A DNA stretch of 64,000 nucleotides from a bacterium (GTDB lineage: Bacteria > Patescibacteriota > Minisyncoccia > JACQLN01). The stretch lies in the NCBI GenBank assembly GCA_030697795.1, contig JAUYOV010000007.1, positions 9,810 to 73,809 of the forward strand, read 5' to 3'. A program made the translations under genes and the position numbers. Under the pieces are notes generated by a model, which ran no database searches, was not told the DNA's origin, and saw only the letters and a program-made list of their open reading frames with translations. Of this stretch, positions 9,532-48,588 are shown in pieces (position 1 is the stretch's first letter; every line of letters begins with the position of its first letter).

Positions 9532-10041
9532 CTATCCCCGAAGGGTTACCCTTCGGGGATTTAGTTCGGCCATTTTATTAGGAATATCATGCCAATGGCT
9601 AATAGCTAAAAGGGTGCCGTCAATTCTTTTTAGTTCTGGGTTATCTTGGCGATACTTACCTGCTACAGCATTTTGATTTGACTCGTTAAAAATTATTCGA
9701 TGAGCATCTCTAATATAGCTAATTTCTAAGGGTAACTTCTTTCGTATCAATCTTTTAATTCTCTTATGTAACGAAGAAGAGGCCTTCCAATAGCCTCTTT
9801 CCTCAAGAACATCGAGATCTTTTTTGCTTAGCGGAACTGTCATTTAGTTATTAGATGATATAACTTTCCGCGCTTCATCCTTTGAAAGTTTATTGCCTTC
9901 TAGTTTGTTTGAATAGTAAGTAGCCTCAAATCGTTGTTCCGATTCTACAGTCTGTTCCTCCACCGCAGATAATGGCGGCAACTTGTTGATTTTCTGGTCT
10001 AAACTGACTAGATTTTTTAGTTTCTTATTCAAATTTCTCAT
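9532..10041 (-). pseudogene. Fic/Doc-family gene remnant with an in-frame TAA; truncated before the HPFx(D/E)GNGR motif
   Basis: ORFs 9844-10041 and 9532-9843 are contiguous in one frame. 'YYSNKLEGNKLSKDEARKVI' matches the Fic N-terminal motif and 'AVAGKYRQDNPELKRIDG' the Fic core. The reading frame ends at the palindromic element. Confidence 0.5.
9536..9563. repeat. palindromic element CCCCGAAGGGTTACCCTTCGGGG+ATTTA (copy 2)
   Basis: Identical core to 1410-1440. Lies between the Fic remnant and the NYN gene start. Confidence 0.8.
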
Positions 10042-19036: not shown

Positions 19037-19367
19037 TGTGCTCTTATGCTAAATATGTGTAAGGCGACCTCTCTTTGTTTCTATTGGGGCTTTTCGCCTT
19101 ACTATCTATGCTTTGAGCATAAGACTCCGAAACTACGAGATATCTTACAACATCTTATTTATAAACTATTACAAACTTAAAAGCAACCCCGCTCTTGAAA
19201 AGTATATTTTCTCTGATTGCCTTCGGCAATACTTTTCAGGGACGGAGTTTGACCCAGCAGAGCAAATTTGACAAACAAGTTTATAAAGTGTAGTATGTAT
19301 CCAACAGTAACAGACAGTCCTTTCCCACAAAAAGTCGCGTATGACGCGATTAACCAAGGAGGTTAGT

Positions 19368-20120
19368 ATGAAGAAGTGTTTTATGATTCTCTCCGCGATA
19401 CTGATCGGACTGATCAGCTCGCCACCCGCACAAGCCAAGCTGATCCTGCCAAGCGATCTGGTCATCACCACCACAGAGATGGCCGGCACCGGGTTCTCCA
19501 TCGACCAGAAGGTTGAGGGCGATATCCTCACACTCACCTTTGATATCGTGGACAAGGCCGACATCAGAAATTTCGGCTTCGGTCTGAAGTTCGACCCCAA
19601 CGAATACAAGCTGGAACAAGTTGAGTCGGGCTTCATCATCAGTTCAGATAATCCCGACAACGTGTCTATCGGTAGTCTGTTCACGTTAAAGGACGTACCC
19701 AAAACCACCGTGATCACCTTGAGAAAAAAGGGAGACAAATGGGGTACCATCACTCCTCAAGAACTCAATGTGTTCACTAGTGGGAAACGAATACTCGCCT
19801 TCGAACCGGCGCCGTCCTTCGTACCGAAAGCATCGGCAATGCCGAAAGCGTTGACTCTGGGCAACTACCCCAACCCCTTCAACCCCGAGACCGAGATACG
19901 GTATAGTTTGCCCGCCGACGGTCTTGTCGAGTTGAAGATCTACAACATGGTCGGCCAGGTGGTACGCACATTGGTGAGCGGACACATGCCCGCCGGCGAA
20001 CACGTCATCAAGTGGAACGCTACCGACAATAGTGGCCAACCGATCGCCGGAGGCATCTACTTCTACAAGCTTACCTCGGGCGCCCAAACGGCCGTCCGTA
20101 GAATGCTTCTGCTGAAATAG
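19368..20120 (+). CDS. secreted protein with T9SS-type (Por) C-terminal sorting domain
   Basis: AAGGAGG RBS and signal peptide 'MKKCFMILSAILIGLISSPPAQA'. C-terminal 'NYPNPFNPETEIRYSLPADGLVELKIYNMVGQVVRTL...GIYFYKLTSG' matches the T9SS CTD consensus. The region is markedly GC-rich. Confidence 0.7.
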   Translation: MKKCFMILSAILIGLISSPPAQAKLILPSDLVITTTEMAGTGFSIDQKVEGDILTLTFDIVDKADIRNFGFGLKFDPNEYKLEQVESGFIISSDNPDNVSIGSLFTLKDVPKTTVITLRKKGDKWGTITPQELNVFTSGKRILAFEPAPSFVPKASAMPKALTLGNYPNPFNPETEIRYSLPADGLVELKIYNMVGQVVRTLVSGHMPAGEHVIKWNATDNSGQPIAGGIYFYKLTSGAQTAVRRMLLLK

Positions 20121-42249: not shown

Positions 42250-43497
42250 TTATAGTCCTGTGCCTATCGAATAAATTGGCTGAATTATAGATAAAGCAAA
42301 AATACCCACAGCTACGCCCATAAAAATCATAATTACGGGCTCAATAACCGAAGACATACTTTTAGTGGCTATAGCCACTTCGGATTCAAAAAAACGAGCT
42401 AGTTCCTTTAAAATATCGGCGAGCGAACCTGTTTCCTCGCCTACGGCAATCATTTCAGTTACTACCGGAGGAAAAAGATCGGGATATTTACCCAATAAAA
42501 AAGATAAGTTTTTACCTTTTTCTATTTCGGCTATTGTTTCGGCTACAGCTTTTTTATAAAAATAATTTGTTAAAGAATCGCTGGTAATACGAATAGCTTC
42601 CACCAAAGGAATTCCGCCTAAAAGCAGAGAGCTTAGCGTTCTGGAAAATCTAGCGGAATTTATTTTTTTAGTTATATCGGAAAAGATGGGCGTTTTTAGT
42701 AAAAATAAATTTACCGTCTTTTTGCCAAATTTAGTTTTCCTAAAAATAAAGTAAGATGCATAACTAACAAAAGCCAAAGAAAAAATAAATAAATACCAGT
42801 AGTTACTCATAAAATTAGATAGGCTAAATATTATTTGAGTGCTTAGAGGCAACGGCACGTTAAGTTCGGTAAAAGTATTAGCTAGTTGGGGCAAAACAAA
42901 TGTCATCATTACCACTCCCACGCCCAGCATGGCCAGCACTATTATAATTGGATAAACCAAAGCCCCCTGTATCTTCTTTTTTATCATATGTTCGCGGCGC
43001 AAATGTCTCATAACCAGTTTTAAGGTGCTTTCCAGCTTGCCCGAAGCCTCGCCCACTTTGGCCATACTCACAAAAAGATCGGGAAAAACGTTGGGATGAC
43101 GAGAAATAGCTTGGCTAAAAGATTCACCCGAAGCTACGCGGGCGCTTATATTTTTAAGCACCTCTGAAAAATATTTATTCTTTGTTTGCCGAGACAAAGT
43201 ATCTAAGGCCTTATTAAGAGAAAAGCCAGCTCGTATCATTAAGCCCAAATGGCGAGCAAAAATAACTTTTTCTTGCAAACTAACATATTTAAACAGAGAT
43301 TCTAGGGAATTAAAAACGTCTTTTTTTAAAATTGAAACAGGCTCGGGCGCCGAACCCATAGCACCTTTTTCTTTGGCAAAAACTAAAAACAAACCCTCGT
43401 CTCTTAAAGCGCGAGCTAAAGCTATTTGGCTATCGGCCATTTTAACGCCTTCAATTTTTTTGCCGTCTTTAGAAATGGCTTTATACTCATACTCCAT
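42250..43497 (-). CDS. pilC: type IV pilus/T2SS platform protein PilC (GspF family)
   Basis: 415 aa with two T2SSF repeats and three TM regions. Confidence 0.85.
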   Translation of the reverse strand: MEYEYKAISKDGKKIEGVKMADSQIALARALRDEGLFLVFAKEKGAMGSAPEPVSILKKDVFNSLESLFKYVSLQEKVIFARHLGLMIRAGFSLNKALDTLSRQTKNKYFSEVLKNISARVASGESFSQAISRHPNVFPDLFVSMAKVGEASGKLESTLKLVMRHLRREHMIKKKIQGALVYPIIIVLAMLGVGVVMMTFVLPQLANTFTELNVPLPLSTQIIFSLSNFMSNYWYLFIFSLAFVSYASYFIFRKTKFGKKTVNLFLLKTPIFSDITKKINSARFSRTLSSLLLGGIPLVEAIRITSDSLTNYFYKKAVAETIAEIEKGKNLSFLLGKYPDLFPPVVTEMIAVGEETGSLADILKELARFFESEVAIATKSMSSVIEPVIMIFMGVAVGIFALSIIQPIYSIGTGL

Positions 43498-43499
43498 TT

Positions 43500-44378
43500 T
43501 TATATTATATCACGAGCGTTATTTATTGATATTACCAATTTCTTAACTTTTTCCTCAAGCAAAGAACCTGAACAATGTTTGAGCATACCAAGATAAGAAG
43601 CTAGGTTTTTTGCATCAACTTTTCTAAACATTCTCCTTTTTGTTTTAGTCCTTAAAACTCTATGATTCGGCAAAACTACATAACCCAGAAAATCTATGCC
43701 TTGAGCATACTTTCTGATAATAACCTTATTCGGATGCAAACATAAGACTAATTTGCTAACCAGAAAGTTATTTATCTTTTTGGACAATTCAATTAAATAA
43801 TCCGCTTGTTCACTTAAAATGACAAAATCATCACAATAACGAATATAATACTTTTCTTTTAATTTGTGCTTAATAAACTGGTCTAATTCGTTAAGGTAAA
43901 TATTGGCAAATAACTGGCTGGTTACATTGCCTAAGGGCAAGGCTTTATCTTTATCTTTTTCAAAGCTTTTGATGATTCTCTCGACTAACCACATAGCATT
44001 TTCGTCTTTGATTTTTATTTGAATCAATTTAGTTAAGATATTTTGGTCTATGGAATCAAAGAATTTTTTAATGTCGCATTTTAAAGCGAATACATTTCGG
44101 CTATTGTTTTTACTTAATTGTTTATAGAAAGTTTCTAACCTTGTTACAGCTATATGAGTTCCTTTACCAACTCTACACGAATAAGAATCATATATAAAAT
44201 GTTTATCAAATATTGGATACAAAATTCTAAAGATAGCTTGATGTAAAACCCTGTCCAGAACACAGGCTTTGTGTATATGTCTTAGTTTGGGATCGGTAAC
44301 ATAAAAAGGAATATACTCGCTATGTTTGTATGTTTTGTTTTTTAATTCAAAATTAAGTTGAAACAAGTTGTCTTCCAA
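43500..44378 (-). CDS. diversity-generating retroelement reverse transcriptase
   Basis: RT motifs, including 'LGNVTSQ' (the [I/L]GxxxSQ motif recalled as distinguishing DGR RTs from retron/group II QGxxxSP) and 'RYCDDFVI'. A TR/VR pair lies immediately upstream. Stop codon is 2 bp from the pilC start. Confidence 0.8.
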   Translation of the reverse strand: MEDNLFQLNFELKNKTYKHSEYIPFYVTDPKLRHIHKACVLDRVLHQAIFRILYPIFDKHFIYDSYSCRVGKGTHIAVTRLETFYKQLSKNNSRNVFALKCDIKKFFDSIDQNILTKLIQIKIKDENAMWLVERIIKSFEKDKDKALPLGNVTSQLFANIYLNELDQFIKHKLKEKYYIRYCDDFVILSEQADYLIELSKKINNFLVSKLVLCLHPNKVIIRKYAQGIDFLGYVVLPNHRVLRTKTKRRMFRKVDAKNLASYLGMLKHCSGSLLEEKVKKLVISINNARDII

Positions 44379-44530
44379 GTTAAACTCAAATTCCTGAACA
44401 TCCAGCCGTTTTCTTTTGCCTTTTTTAAATTCGCGCCAAGCTAAAAATAGATTTTCTAAGGAAATAACTTTATCAAAAACATTATGGAAAACTTTCCCAC
44501 TAAAGCCCCCCCGACAGCGTCAATGCGAAT

Positions 44531-44866
44531 TTGGTTCATAGGATTACTGAATTTTATAAGCAAATCTATCTTTTATCCAGCAAGATAAGCAAAAGAGACA
44601 AATTCGGTATTTGGTTAAAGATAGAAAATTCCTGTTTAGAAACATTGTATCTAATAATCAAAGCCTCTTTTGCCCACAAATCAACCAAACTGCCTCCGCT
44701 AAATTCAGCCAGAATAGAAATAGAAGTTTTAAAAAGACTTTTAAGAATTACCCATGAACTTTTAATAATTCAAGATAAAACATACTTAAAACTAGAATCC
44801 GATTTACAGGAAATATCCAAAATGACTAATGGCTGGATCAAATATGAAACACAAAAGGAGCAGTGA
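44531..44866 (+). CDS. possible Avd-like four-helix-bundle accessory protein (TTG start)
   Basis: 111-aa helical ORF between RT and TR. C-terminal 'QEISKMTNGWIK' resembles the conserved end of the Avd/TIGR02436 family. Its orientation is opposite to RT and TR sense, which is atypical. Confidence 0.35.
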   Translation: MVHRITEFYKQIYLLSSKISKRDKFGIWLKIENSCLETLYLIIKASFAHKSTKLPPLNSARIEIEVLKRLLRITHELLIIQDKTYLKLESDLQEISKMTNGWIKYETQKEQ

Positions 44867-44889
44867 TGCTCCCTTTTTAGTGCGGAAAC

Positions 44890-45016
44890 TTCTCACGAGA
44901 ACGGAGACTGCTATTGGAGTTGTCGGGATTGTAGTTACTAACGTTGACCTTGCTATTGTGCCTGTTCCAGTTGACGTTCGGCACATTACCATCGGCATTA
45001 CGCGAACCCGTTTTTT
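44890..45016 (-). repeat. DGR template repeat (TR)
   Basis: 120-bp ungapped core 44892-45011 aligns to 45297-45416 with 20 mismatches. At 18 of them the minus-strand base here is A. Flanking positions continue the pattern. Confidence 0.75.
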
Positions 45017-45207
45017 GCCTAATCTCATCCATTATCACCAATAACCTTTTACAAAGTTATCTGCGTCAGCCGCGAACACACGCGGATTTTTTTATGAAGC
45101 ATCCGCCAAAAATAGCGAAACCTTCTCTAAAACTAGGCAAGCAGTTTCCTTTTTGTTGGCAAACCGCTATCTCACCATGGGCGAGACCGATTGTATTAGC
45201 CAAAATA

Positions 45208-45239
45208 ATTTTATCACAAAAAGAAAACCCGCCAGCTTT
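45208..45239 (-). terminator. hairpin CCCGCCAGC-TTT-GCTGGCGGG + T-run downstream of the DGR target gene/VR
   Basis: Perfect 9-bp GC-rich stem about 55 nt beyond the VR end. Consistent with the hairpin commonly found after a DGR VR. Confidence 0.55.
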
Positions 45240-45284
45240 GCTGGCGGGGGAAAAGGGTACAAGATAAAAATTACAAGGGAAAAA

Positions 45285-46016
45285 TCAGGAAACTACCTCA
45301 CGAGAACGGAGACTGCTATAGGAGTAGCCGGGATAATAGTAACTAACGCAGACCTTGCTATAGTGCCTGCTCCAGAAGACGAACGGCACACCCCCACCGG
45401 CAACACGCGAACCCGTACAGGACGTGGTGTTGTTCCTATCCATATGCTCTTTGGTTTCGCTCCAGTATTTGAAGCCATGTAGCTTGCGCTCCCGAAGGGT
45501 TTCGGTTTTGAGACCCTTCTCCTTGATCTGGTTAGCCGAAAGGTTTTTGAGTTCCTCATCGGCTTCCACCCGGTCGCGCACCCAGATGGCGTAATGGCCA
45601 TTGTTGGAATTCCGTTCTTCCTTGTCCCAATCAATAGCCACATCCAGATTGTCGTAGTAGCGCCAGCACTTGAAGTGCTTATCGCAGACTTCGTAGATTT
45701 GGTTGAGGGTGAGGCCTTGGGCTACCACGATGAGGCGGTCAAAACCGACCTGCTTTTCGGGAATGCGAACCTGCGAGAAGTCCAGTTCCAAACTGAAAAA
45801 CTTACGGTAGAAGTTCTGCCAGTCGGTGAACGGGACGATATTCGGCATCGCCGGGAAAAGACCAACGATCCCTTCGGCCTTGCCAGATTTGGCATTGGCC
45901 ACTTCGGCGGCCATTTCGGGCGAGAATCCTTTCTTGCCCAAAGTTATCAGCATTTCACCGACTAGTCCATGAGAAAAATCCGAGGGCTTGTAGATACGGC
46001 TCGCGACTTCCGACAT
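45285..46016 (-). CDS. DGR target protein (variable C-terminus)
   Basis: 243 aa with GGAGG RBS. VR occupies roughly the last 45 codons ('...TGSRVAGGGVPFVFWSRHYSKVCVSYYYPGYSYSSLRSRE'). GC-rich. Confidence 0.7.
   Translation of the reverse strand: MSEVASRIYKPSDFSHGLVGEMLITLGKKGFSPEMAAEVANAKSGKAEGIVGLFPAMPNIVPFTDWQNFYRKFFSLELDFSQVRIPEKQVGFDRLIVVAQGLTLNQIYEVCDKHFKCWRYYDNLDVAIDWDKEERNSNNGHYAIWVRDRVEADEELKNLSANQIKEKGLKTETLRERKLHGFKYWSETKEHMDRNNTTSCTGSRVAGGGVPFVFWSRHYSKVCVSYYYPGYSYSSLRSREVVS
45295..45421 (-). repeat. DGR variable repeat (VR)
   Basis: Counterpart of the TR; mismatches fall at TR adenines. Confidence 0.75.
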
Positions 46017-46337
46017 CGCACACCTCCATCTAATTAAGTTAAGAAGTACTATTCCTCCTTCGCTACGACGTTATGTCATAGCTACGGAAGGACAAGTTAG
46101 GCTCTATTTGAGCTTAATAGCATATTAACATCTTATACGGTTTTTAGTCAAGTTTGACTACACTTACACTGTTTGCTAGACTTACTTCACAAGTGCCTTC
46201 GGGCTCGCCCTGCAAAGGGCAAACAGAGAAAAACCATCAAAACATATCTTTGATGGTTTTTCTTATACTCTCAAATACTTTTTTAGTATCTACCAAGCTA
46301 AAACTCGGATAAGTAGGTTACCCCAAATATGTCTAAA

Positions 46338-46577
46338 TTATACAGAAACAAAAGTTTTAGCTGTAGTTTTATTTAAAACCAAATCTTTCATCGTAATTTT
46401 CTCAACTCCTTTCTTACCTAATTTTTCTTTTACCCCCAAGATTTCTAAATATAATGGTTTTGATTTTGAATCCACATCTAAAAGTATCTCCGGAGCGATC
46501 TCGAGAGTCTTTTTTACTTTACCCTCTTTAAAGGTGATGCTTAAAGCATCGGCATAAGAATCATAAACTATTTTCAT
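46338..46577 (-). CDS. DUF2283-like protein (putative antitoxin)
   Basis: 'MKIVYDSYADALSITF...' pattern. Confidence 0.5.
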   Translation of the reverse strand: MKIVYDSYADALSITFKEGKVKKTLEIAPEILLDVDSKSKPLYLEILGVKEKLGKKGVEKITMKDLVLNKTTAKTFVSV

Positions 46578-46578
46578 T

Positions 46579-46803
46579 TTATATCTTACTAACCCAATGT
46601 TGAGTAATTACAACGATAATTTTATTATTATTATTTACAAATATAACCTTTAAATAAAGATTGCGAAATTTTTTAAATGCAATCATTTTCCCTCCGTTAG
46701 TTGGCAAAATCTTATCAGGATTCTTAAGAGTCTTTACAACCAAACCCCTAGCTATACTTCTTTGTTTCAACTTTAAGATTGCGTGCTTGGTGAAGCTTAT
46801 CAT
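46579..46803 (-). CDS. DUF4258-like protein (putative toxin)
   Basis: 'MISFTKHAILKLKQRSI...' pattern; abuts its partner. Confidence 0.5.
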   Translation of the reverse strand: MISFTKHAILKLKQRSIARGLVVKTLKNPDKILPTNGGKMIAFKKFRNLYLKVIFVNNNNKIIVVITQHWVSKI

Positions 46804-46824: not shown

Positions 46825-48588
46825 TTATTCCCTCGAAGCCCTCAAAACTTCTTCTATACTCGTAATGCCTTGAACGGCTTTTATAAAACCATCTTCTAGC
46901 ATAGTTATCATACCTTCTTCTTCGGCTACTTTTTGAATATCATCTGATGTGGCCGAAGCCACAATAAGTTCTTTAATTTTTGGCGTAATATCTAAAACTT
47001 CAAAAATTCCCACCCGACCCTTATACCCATTGGGCGAATTTTCTGTTTCTTTCGGCCTATAAAAACTTATTGATTCCCATGTGTCTTTTGGCCCGATAAT
47101 TTTTTCGTCTTTAAGTGTTTTTAAAACTTTATCCAAATTTATTTCTTTACCCAGCGCTTCTATTTCTTTTTTTGTAAGATTATATTTGGTCCTGCTATCC
47201 CCCGATAAACATCTAACCAACCTCTGCCCCACAATAGCTGTTAGCGTAGACGAAATAAGAAACGGCTCTACTTTCATATCTATTAAGCGCGGGATAGCGC
47301 CGGCGGCAGAATTTGTGTGCAAAGTAGAAACAACTAAATGACCAGTTAAGGAAGCGTTAATAGCGAGCGCCGCCGTTTCACTGTCGCGGATTTCCCCCAC
47401 CATAATTATATCTGGATCCTGCCTAACCAAAGTGCGTAAACCCTGCGCAAAAGAAAAACCAATATCCGGTTTAACCTGTGTTTGATTAACGCGCGGTATA
47501 CGATATTCTATCGGATCCTCTACTGTAGAAATATTAACTTCGGGCGTATTTAAAATATCTAAAACTGTATAAAGCGACGTGGTTTTGCCCGAACCGGTGG
47601 GACCGGTTGATAAAATTAAACCAGTTGGACGCTTAATGGCGCGATGCAAGATTTCTAGGGCCTTACCCCGATAGCCCAAACTTTCCAAAGTAAAACCTTG
47701 AGAATCTTCTTTTAAAAGACGCATCACAATTTTTTCGCCGTCATAAACCGGTAAAATAGAAACACGAAAAGAAACTTTAAAACCCTTCCCTTCTATTTTA
47801 AAACGGCCGTCTTGAGGCAACCTATGTTCGTCTAATTTTAAATTAGAGAGGACTTTGATGCGCGCCACAATACCATCGTGCACCGCTTGAGGCAGTGTCA
47901 TTACATCTTTTAAAATTCCATCAATGCGATACCTCACCACTACATCTTTTTCTTCGGGTTCTATATGTATATCGGAAGCGCTTTCCAAAATAGCGTGCCG
48001 AATTAAAGTATCAACGATTTTAACCACGGGCAATTCTTCGGCCACGCGTTGTAATTCGGCGTCCGATTTTATTTTGCCATCTTTAGAAGCCAAGCCCACA
48101 ACCTTAAGTACAGCGGAAGATTCACTTTTTATAATATTGTTAAATTCGTCTTCTAAACTACGCTGATACTGCCTTAAAACAGCTTCTAGCGACTGGCGTG
48201 AAGTTAACCTAGGTAAAATATTAAGACTGGCTTTTTTCTTTATAAAATCTATAGTTTGTAAATCGTTAGGATCCAGCATAGCTACCTCAAGATCAGTGCC
48301 TGTCTGGCGAAATGCCACAATATTACTGTTGCGGGCGATTGGTTCTGGAATTATTTTTAAAATTTCCGAATCAACTTTTTGTTGGGTTAGATCCACAAAA
48401 GGAATGCCTAAAACATAAGCTTTGGCTTTGGCTATCATCTCTTCGGAAACAAAATTACGACGAATTAAAACCTCATCTAACCTGCGGCCAGTTTCTTTTT
48501 GATCGGTTTCGGCTAGTTCTAAATTTTTGGCCGAAACTAAATTTGAATCAACTAAAAATCTTTTAAATTTTTCCAAGTCCAACGTCAT
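46825..48588 (-). CDS. pilB: type IV pilus assembly ATPase PilB (GspE family)
   Basis: Walker A 'GPTGSGKTTSLY', Asp/His boxes, N-terminal GSPII domains. Confidence 0.9.
   Translation of the reverse strand: MTLDLEKFKRFLVDSNLVSAKNLELAETDQKETGRRLDEVLIRRNFVSEEMIAKAKAYVLGIPFVDLTQQKVDSEILKIIPEPIARNSNIVAFRQTGTDLEVAMLDPNDLQTIDFIKKKASLNILPRLTSRQSLEAVLRQYQRSLEDEFNNIIKSESSAVLKVVGLASKDGKIKSDAELQRVAEELPVVKIVDTLIRHAILESASDIHIEPEEKDVVVRYRIDGILKDVMTLPQAVHDGIVARIKVLSNLKLDEHRLPQDGRFKIEGKGFKVSFRVSILPVYDGEKIVMRLLKEDSQGFTLESLGYRGKALEILHRAIKRPTGLILSTGPTGSGKTTSLYTVLDILNTPEVNISTVEDPIEYRIPRVNQTQVKPDIGFSFAQGLRTLVRQDPDIIMVGEIRDSETAALAINASLTGHLVVSTLHTNSAAGAIPRLIDMKVEPFLISSTLTAIVGQRLVRCLSGDSRTKYNLTKKEIEALGKEINLDKVLKTLKDEKIIGPKDTWESISFYRPKETENSPNGYKGRVGIFEVLDITPKIKELIVASATSDDIQKVAEEEGMITMLEDGFIKAVQGITSIEEVLRASRE

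Follow-up and report, generated by a model that had tools for sequence, protein, structure and literature searches.

A diversity-generating retroelement of the Patescibacteria class between pilB and pilC, with a poly-G tract at the start of its reverse transcriptase and a conserved RNA domain ahead of its template repeat

The diversity-generating retroelements (DGRs) of the Candidate Phyla Radiation (CPR, Patescibacteria) are said to have been surveyed first by Paul et al. in 2017. Wu et al. (2018; PMC5758913) placed 90% of CPR DGRs in an architecture, B3, with the order TR-(avd)-RT (template repeat, avd, reverse transcriptase), and Roux et al. (2021; PMC8144416) described a DGR clade 2 that is restricted to Patescibacteria and has targets without recognisable domains. 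Here we report on a 64,000-nucleotide stretch of a Patescibacteria metagenome-assembled genome (MAG), namely positions 9,810 to 73,809 of contig JAUYOV010000007.1 (GenBank assembly GCA_030697795.1, forward strand); this whole stretch is referred to as the window, and all positions are counted along it. We are very confident that the region 43500–46016 is a chromosomal DGR of the CPR class, laid out as target(VR)-TR-(avd, reversed)-RT, where VR denotes the variable repeat. The element is an ordinary member of an already well-described class, and the DGR itself is not new; taken alone, it is one more example beside the thousands of CPR DGRs that have been catalogued and carries little weight. 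The CPR and DGR papers examined make no mention of a poly-G tract at the RT start, of a 190-nt 5′ RNA domain or of a pilB-pilC context. Of these, the poly-G tract and the 5′ RNA domain occur family-wide; no description of either was found, and they are worth following.

Read along the minus strand, the locus comprises a 243-aa open reading frame (ORF), a GC-rich hairpin with a T-run, ~210 nt of non-coding DNA and a second copy of the last 120–130 nt of the ORF, followed by a stem-loop, a 111-aa ORF on the opposite strand (44531–44866) and the RT gene, which ends at 43500. The second copy is the TR (44884–45016, core 44892–45011, minus strand), and the copy inside the ORF is the VR (45288–45421, core 45297–45416, minus strand), which encodes target residues 201–240 and in which the A-to-N pattern reaches 45421. 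An earlier annotation made from the letters of the DNA (the sequence-only reading) had reported these repeats as an ungapped 120-bp alignment with 20 mismatches, 18 of them at A, and realignment and tabulation reproduced both the coordinates and the counts. The two cores lie 405 nt apart and are 83% identical over the 120 nt. In the minus-strand sense, 18 of the 20 mismatches fall at a TR adenine (A>T in 11 cases, A>G in 7), and the remaining T>G and C>T fall at third codon positions and are synonymous. Given 35 adenines in 120 nt, the binomial probability of at least 18 in 20 is 2.3e-8, and the Fisher test gave P = 5.6e-10. The 5 nt directly 5′ of the repeat (45016–45012) had been said to continue the pattern, and they do so with five further A>N mismatches, which brings the total to 23 of 25.

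The adenines of the TR are also phased to the coding frame. All 35 lie at codon positions 1 or 2 of the VR frame, and the TR contains 11 AAY codons. In theory 23 codons could vary, corresponding to ~3.5e20 proteins. Of the 24 adenines in AAY/GAY codons, 18 have been replaced in the present VR, whose product differs from the TR translation at 13 residues. On the 3′ side, the repeats share a 21-nt identical block, AGCAGTCTCCGTTCTCGTGAG, past which there are a 1-nt indel and an A/T difference (TR GAG-AAGTTTCC, VR GAGGTAGTTTCC); homology resumes past the indel (TR AAGTTTCC, VR GTAGTTTCC). The VR ends in a sequence resembling an initiation of mutagenic homing (IMH) site, AGCAGTCTCCGTTCTCGTGAG followed by GTAGTTTCC, which reaches the stop codon, and the corresponding IMH*-like 3′ end of the TR is GAG-AAGTTTCC. 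The AGCAGTCTCCGTTCTCGTGAG block occurs at two sites only in the 64-kb window, which therefore holds neither a third copy nor a second target.

The same pattern recurs in relatives. When one genome per species was scanned, target homologs were found at 79 loci, almost all from Patescibacteria MAGs. About 35 of the 79 have the order target(+), TR, avd(−), RT(+), and in about 40 loci the TR/VR mismatches fall nearly all at TR adenines (e.g. 16/16, 20/20 and 24/24). In most of the loci L002–L074 the last Val codon of the target reads GTA in the VR and GAA in the TR, the T and the A being at 45295 and 44890, respectively, in the window. This A/T difference appears to be fixed rather than random, and it may distinguish IMH from IMH*.

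The RT gene (43500–44539, minus strand; body open from 44519 to the stop at 43500) encodes a YCDD motif and the LGNVTSQ motif that the sequence-only reading had rightly singled out as DGR-type. The frame is open over 339 codons with all catalytic motifs, and its product is ~70% identical to homologs. The protein matched RVT_1 (PF00078) in Pfam with 75.6 bits. Among all PDB sequences the best match was 8ub7_A, a 328-aa 'reverse transcriptase', with 151 bits over residues 8–301, and the RT motif LGNVTSQLFANIY aligns with IGSLTSQLFANVY of 8ub7_A. From its sequence and length, we take 8ub7_A to be the RT of the Bordetella phage (bRT); the PDB code 8UB7 is named in no paper of the searchable literature. 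In the same comparison group II RTs scored at most 70 bits and a retron RT 30 bits. The assignment to the DGR type, rather than to the retron or group II type, is upheld at the level of sequence comparison. In some close RT homologs (P0130, P0134, P0171 and P0263) a uracil-DNA glycosylase domain (PF03167) is either fused to the RT or comes directly after it, and on one Giovannonibacteria contig the RT and the uracil-DNA glycosylase are separate adjoining genes.

The target gene (45285–46016, minus strand) encodes the 243-aa protein with the VR at its C-terminus. The strong Shine-Dalgarno sequence attributed to it was found as GGAGG at 46027–46023, 7 nt ahead of the ATG. In the structure model, residues 1–60 are helical with low confidence and precede a C-type-lectin-fold domain with the VR at its C-terminal end. 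The modelled domain has a C-type-lectin/FGE fold, and its structure matches include DGR variable proteins, in agreement with the ligand-binding type of fold that had been anticipated for the C-terminus. The protein has no match in Pfam or NCBIfam, and neither a signal peptide nor a recognisable domain or membrane segment was detected in it. Its family comprises at least 582 proteins of ~240 aa, from Patescibacteria wherever the source is named, and one protein identical to the target is annotated as 'hypothetical protein' in an NCBI MAG. Hypervariable and invariant columns alternate at the C-terminal end of the family alignment, which also has a conserved core. The target gene is compositionally foreign: its GC content at third codon positions (GC3) is 0.66 vs 0.28–0.33 for RT, avd, pilB and pilC, and over 31 loci the target, RT, avd and flanks had mean GC contents of 54%, 36%, 34% and 43%, respectively. 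Another ORF of foreign composition in the window (19311–20117, plus strand; 269 aa, GC3 0.69) has a signal-peptide-like N-terminus (MKKCFMILSAILIGLISSPPAQA).

The 111-aa ORF (44531–44866, plus strand, opposite to the other genes of the element) had been put forward as a possible Avd-like protein. It scored 54.4 bits with the Pfam bAvd model (PF22296; cut-off 40), which sustains the suggestion, and 21.6 bits with TIGR02436, just short of the cut-off of 24; a sequence search of PDB gave no match. Its orientation had been regarded as unusual, which it is not. Reversed avd is the standard B3 layout and is present in the related loci with the order described above, and a reversed Avd is therefore the norm for the class. 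The TTG start of avd (44531) and the ATG of the RT overlap head-to-head by 9 nt (44531–44539), and therefore the promoter and ribosome-binding region of each gene must lie inside the other. The poly-G tract of the RT (see below), which is poly-C in the avd sense, is situated 18 nt upstream of the avd start. Overall, the adenine-specific mismatches, the RT match, the C-type-lectin/FGE fold of the target and the bAvd match support the DGR interpretation.

The 5′ end of the RT gene departs from the earlier description, which had the RT start at 44378. Conserved N-terminal sequence is encoded further upstream, up to an ATG at 44539–44537. Homologs have ~35 conserved residues (...GGG..H.IF..IISLENLFLAW...) upstream of the position of the annotated TTG at 44378, and in the alignment to 8ub7_A these residues correspond to the N-terminal extension of bRT. 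In the window the frame of the RT body extends over them, upstream as far as a TGA at 44522–44520, and this interval holds no start codon. The conserved start, ATG 44539–44537 (MNQIRIDAVGG...; compare MNQGDIGTAGGG... and MRQTGIDSIGGG... in homologs), joins the RT frame only if the G run at 44506–44512 is G8 and not G7, and a TTG at 44523 would need G6 or G9. This poly-G tract (minus strand, G7 in the RT sense) spans RT codons 10–12 and encodes the conserved GGG of the homologs. As assembled, G7 parts the conserved start from the RT body, and the reading frame is not intact; this touches the present activity of the element and not its identity as a DGR. The claim of a 'complete' DGR must be qualified because of this break in the assembled RT frame, although RT, TR, VR, target and Avd are all present.

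The tract is conserved in position and variable in length. Among related loci that include the RT 5′ end, 30 of 34 have G7–G14 at the same place, with a mode of G10. The related loci (643 kb in total) contain 34 G/C runs of at least 8, at least 28 of which are at the RT 5′ end, and in the 64-kb window G7 is the longest G/C run. With a mean GC content of 36% in the RTs, codon usage would not lead one to expect three consecutive GGG codons. Tract status was read from DNA tract lengths and not from gene calls. The conserved ATG is in frame in all four loci without the tract vs about 8 of 29 with it, and 13 of 30 loci with the tract have no in-frame start at all. Short RT gene calls were considered as a mark of 'off' tracts and proved partly wrong, as L080, with an in-frame G9, is still called short, probably due to an overlapping avd call.

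Near-identical contigs that come from different samples differ in tract length. For a Wildermuthbacteria element (L080–L086) the tract is G9, G10, G10, G9, G11, G9 and G10, and over 1.5 kb the other polymorphisms of these contigs lie only in the VR, bar four substitutions in one contig. Of the contigs with a second sister element, six have G9 and two have G10, and G8 and G11 alleles are implied by its protein cluster. In an Azambacteria element the tract is G11 in three of the contigs and G12 in the other two, and a single further nucleotide polymorphism occurs in 3.1 kb. RT clusters at 90% include GGG/GGGG protein variants and frame-switched N-termini. These loci show two features of a contingency locus, with a G homopolymer inside the ORF that sets the frame and a length that is polymorphic, the latter in three sister elements only. 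A poly-G artefact of the sequencer was rejected as an explanation, since the tracts are internal to contigs, have unique flanks and occur in assemblies of different projects. No literature linking DGRs with homopolymers or RT phase variation was found, and an earlier description (e.g. by Paul et al. 2017) is possible. Judged from these sequences, RT expression may be governed by the tract, as a hypermutable switch or as a slippage site, transcriptional slippage being the alternative to phase switching, and the RT copy in the window would be either in the off state or mis-assembled by one G.

The second family-wide feature is a structured non-coding RNA domain of ~190 nt (45015–45201, minus strand) directly 5′ of the TR. 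Across 29 loci, the ~210 nt between the target terminator and the TR are conserved and include a TATAAT-like box, GGCTAATACAATCGGTC, TTTGCCA, GAAACTGCTTG and helices. TTTGCCA and GAAACTGC are invariant motifs in the alignment (A4), and in the window the invariant motifs of the domain are TTTGCCA and GGAAACTGC (45149–45141). RNAalifold on the 29 loci returned three helices, with compensatory changes in 23 of 30 pairs. In the window these are P1 (45192–45183 with 45173–45162), the long-range P2 (45140–45129 with 45026–45015) and P3 (~45061–45039). For 29 named pairs, 93.9% of cells pair vs 77.6% in shuffled and 32–51% in slid controls, and the number of double-change cells is 171 vs 53 and 20–43, respectively. 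Folding the window RNA as a single sequence reproduced P2 and P3 (z = -3.85). Rfam yielded only tRNAs in the window at gathering scores, and only chance-level matches in 44800–45300.

Two details of this domain may bear on cDNA synthesis. P2 ends exactly at the start of TR/VR homology, and by analogy it may be the counterpart of the Bordetella 'cPRT stop' duplex. The invariant GGAAACU (45149–45143) is complementary to the conserved TR 3′ end, AGUUUCC (44890–44884), and in five loci with ACTAC in the motif the TR has T or C in place of A at the facing position (GTAGT vs GAAGT). From this complementarity, the two segments could be a priming duplex, which we offer as a lead only.

Signals on both sides of the TR suggest that it is transcribed on its own. 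Upstream, an extended −10-like box, TGaTAAAAT (45208–45216, minus strand), was recognised as a consensus match at a position conserved in the family, and in alignment A4 a TATAAT-like block is conserved just upstream of the conserved GGCTAATAC. This box is the putative promoter of the TR RNA, with a start near 45201. Downstream, a 10-bp stem-loop (GGGAGCA-TCAC-TGCTCC; 44853–44876) with A-/T-run flanks lies between the TR and the avd 3′ end; it was called terminator-like on both strands and looks like a bidirectional terminator. A strong 8–13-bp stem-loop with a U-run follows the TR in each of the 29 related loci examined. The window stem-loop matches the class that Handa et al. (bioRxiv 10.1101/2023.10.23.563531) described as 'Avd-binding stem-loops just downstream of TR' in many DGRs including those of CPR, in a study that examined only 40 nt upstream of the TR. 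Between these limits the TR would be transcribed as an independent RNA of ~350 nt, from ~45201 to ~44845. The GC-rich 9-bp hairpin reported past the VR does exist (45228–45248, minus strand) and is followed by a U-run (TTTTCTTTTT), at a distance of 49 nt from the VR (~55 nt in the sequence-only reading). Related loci have an equivalent strong hairpin with a T-run after the VR. It looks like the intrinsic terminator of the target gene, and it is possibly the 'hairpin/cruciform' element of the DGR as well.

We weighed these results against other explanations of the locus. An ordinary duplication or gene-conversion tract that happens to lie beside an unrelated RT, such as that of a retron, a group II intron or a defence system, is highly improbable. 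The RT reached no curated cut-off in NCBIfam, and its best model there, a group II intron RT/maturase with 140 bits, would be in keeping with an unrelated RT; however, this score is far under the cut-off of 300, the retron and DRT models were likewise far under theirs, and neither intron RNA domains nor an Rfam match was found at the locus. The mismatch spectrum, moreover, is adenine-specific and codon-phased, Avd is present and the pattern recurs in the relatives. It is also unlikely, in our estimate, that the element is a decayed DGR, once active, in which a frameshift at the G tract has turned the RT into a pseudogene and the VR no longer changes. G7 leaves both upstream start codons out of frame and is the shortest tract among the 30 loci, and the loss of the cassette does happen in the lineage, as a related locus between pilB and pilC (L001, see below) lacks it. 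In addition, Wu et al. (PMC5758913) discarded DGRs with premature stops and set aside over half of their candidates as inactivated. Yet apart from the tract the RT has kept its frame, its catalytic motifs and its similarity to homologs, and avd, TR, RNA domain and hairpins are intact. About a third to half of otherwise intact relatives are out of frame as well, and among near-identical contigs such lengths alternate with in-frame ones. A somewhat better, still doubtful, account is that G7 is a sequencing or assembly error, the true tract being in frame and the DGR intact and constitutively expressed. Short-read assembly is error-prone at homopolymers and the window comes from a single MAG contig, whereas independent assemblies, from other projects and years, differ in tract length while being identical otherwise, bar the VR and a few substitutions. 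An error in this contig would leave the identification as a DGR unchanged.

Several observations weigh against the reading of the locus as a DGR able to act as outlined here. None of the 11 TR adenines in codons other than AAY/GAY is changed in the VR, a pattern that fits selection on scaffold residues together with homing boundaries. The assembled RT ORF has no in-frame start before TTG 44378, so that its product is without the conserved N-terminal extension. The 111-aa ORF scored 52 bits with NF033474 (DivGenRetAVD), under the cut-off of 80, the hairpin 49 nt from the VR resembles a plain terminator, and the promoter calls are consensus matches only. In a protein search, a single contig carried the target and RT proteins of this element, which bears on activity, and two metagenome scans, one with the element's own TR and one with the VR pattern with N at TR adenines, gave 0 matches. 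The RT is one G out of frame, and the tract is conserved and length-variable in relatives; therefore, we consider the element most likely to be a functional DGR, with a tract that is either at an 'off' length or wrongly assembled, and not a dead copy.

For a functional DGR of this kind, the following course of events can be proposed. By analogy with the Bordetella phage, an RNA of ~350 nt would be transcribed from its own promoter and would consist of the 190-nt structured 5′ domain, a 125-nt TR and the 3′ stem-loop/terminator. The RT-Avd complex would bind this TR RNA, and the RT would reverse-transcribe the TR, misincorporating opposite adenines. The cDNA would then replace the VR at the target 3′ end, and up to 23 codons for the ligand-binding face of a small protein with a C-type-lectin fold would be recoded. 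At the G tract, RT translation would be turned on or off by slipped-strand changes in length or by slippage of RNA polymerase, and in the population a minority of cells would diversify the target while the majority would keep their variant. The general form of this proposal, that the mutator of CPR DGRs, and hence probably of this one, is gated by a hypermutable poly-G tract within the first dozen RT codons at the avd overlap and uses an undescribed 190-nt 5′ RNA instead of the 3′ 'Sp' RNA of the phage, is tentative, and we rate it slightly more apt to fail than to hold.

The DGR cassette lies between pilB (46825–48588) and pilC (42250–43497), and pilin-like genes follow downstream on the same strand. 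Between the RT stop and the pilC start (43497) there are 2 nt, and pilC may be co-transcribed with the RT or may rely on a promoter within the RT gene. The closest target homolog in the species set (L001, 278–6927; 59% identity) is found in the same setting, pilB-target-pilC-pilins, with the same hairpin after the gene and with TR, avd and RT all lacking. The VR of L001 was rejected as a product of the window TR, as the two differ by 59 mismatches in 136 nt that are not adenine-specific. At three further loci a PilB-like gene occurs within 5 kb of the target homolog. Between pilB and the target there is a DUF4258/DUF2283 gene pair (46338–46803), which looks like a small toxin-antitoxin-type pair; these genes were rejected as a part of the DGR, being absent from all related loci. 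At L095–L099, a RuvX-like gene after the Azambacteria RT is called as 100 or 123 aa in nearly identical DNA, which is probably a gene-calling difference.

The interest of the locus lies in what its family-wide features and its setting may mean. If the conserved, length-polymorphic homopolymer at the RT start is a switch, it would provide a simple genetic on/off control of targeted hypermutation, and surveys that drop 'frameshifted' RTs would count too few functional CPR DGRs. For DGRs that have no downstream spacer RNA, the RNA domain with its covariation support offers a concrete model of cDNA priming and stopping. The position of the target in a pilB-pilC operon, which is shared by a relative without a DGR, is a lead to the function of CPR DGR targets.

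Compared with the CPR DGRs of architecture B3 and clade 2, the element is alike in gene order, reversed avd, small target, host and adenine-specific mismatches, and there is no essential difference. It differs from the DGR of Bordetella phage BPP-1 in several respects. The order there is mtd-avd-TR-brt, whereas here avd is reversed and lies between TR and RT. In BPP-1 a 140-nt 'Sp' RNA is located downstream of the TR, in contrast to the ~45-nt stem-loop alone at this position here and the large structured RNA upstream of the TR. The BPP-1 target is a phage tail fibre, and the target here is a chromosomal 243-aa protein encoded inside a type IV pilus operon. With TvpA of Treponema denticola, TaqVP of Thermus aquaticus and FGE-type C-lectin folds, the target shares 8–15% identity; its domain is much smaller than theirs and has no Pfam match to FGE-sulfatase or DUF1566. 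The poly-G tract, in turn, resembles those of contingency genes in Neisseria, Campylobacter and Helicobacter, which likewise have a G/C homopolymer of ~8–14 just inside the 5′ end of the ORF, with a length that differs between near-identical strains and sets the frame. Those contingency genes are mostly surface or restriction-modification genes, whereas the gene switched here would be the mutator enzyme of a DGR.

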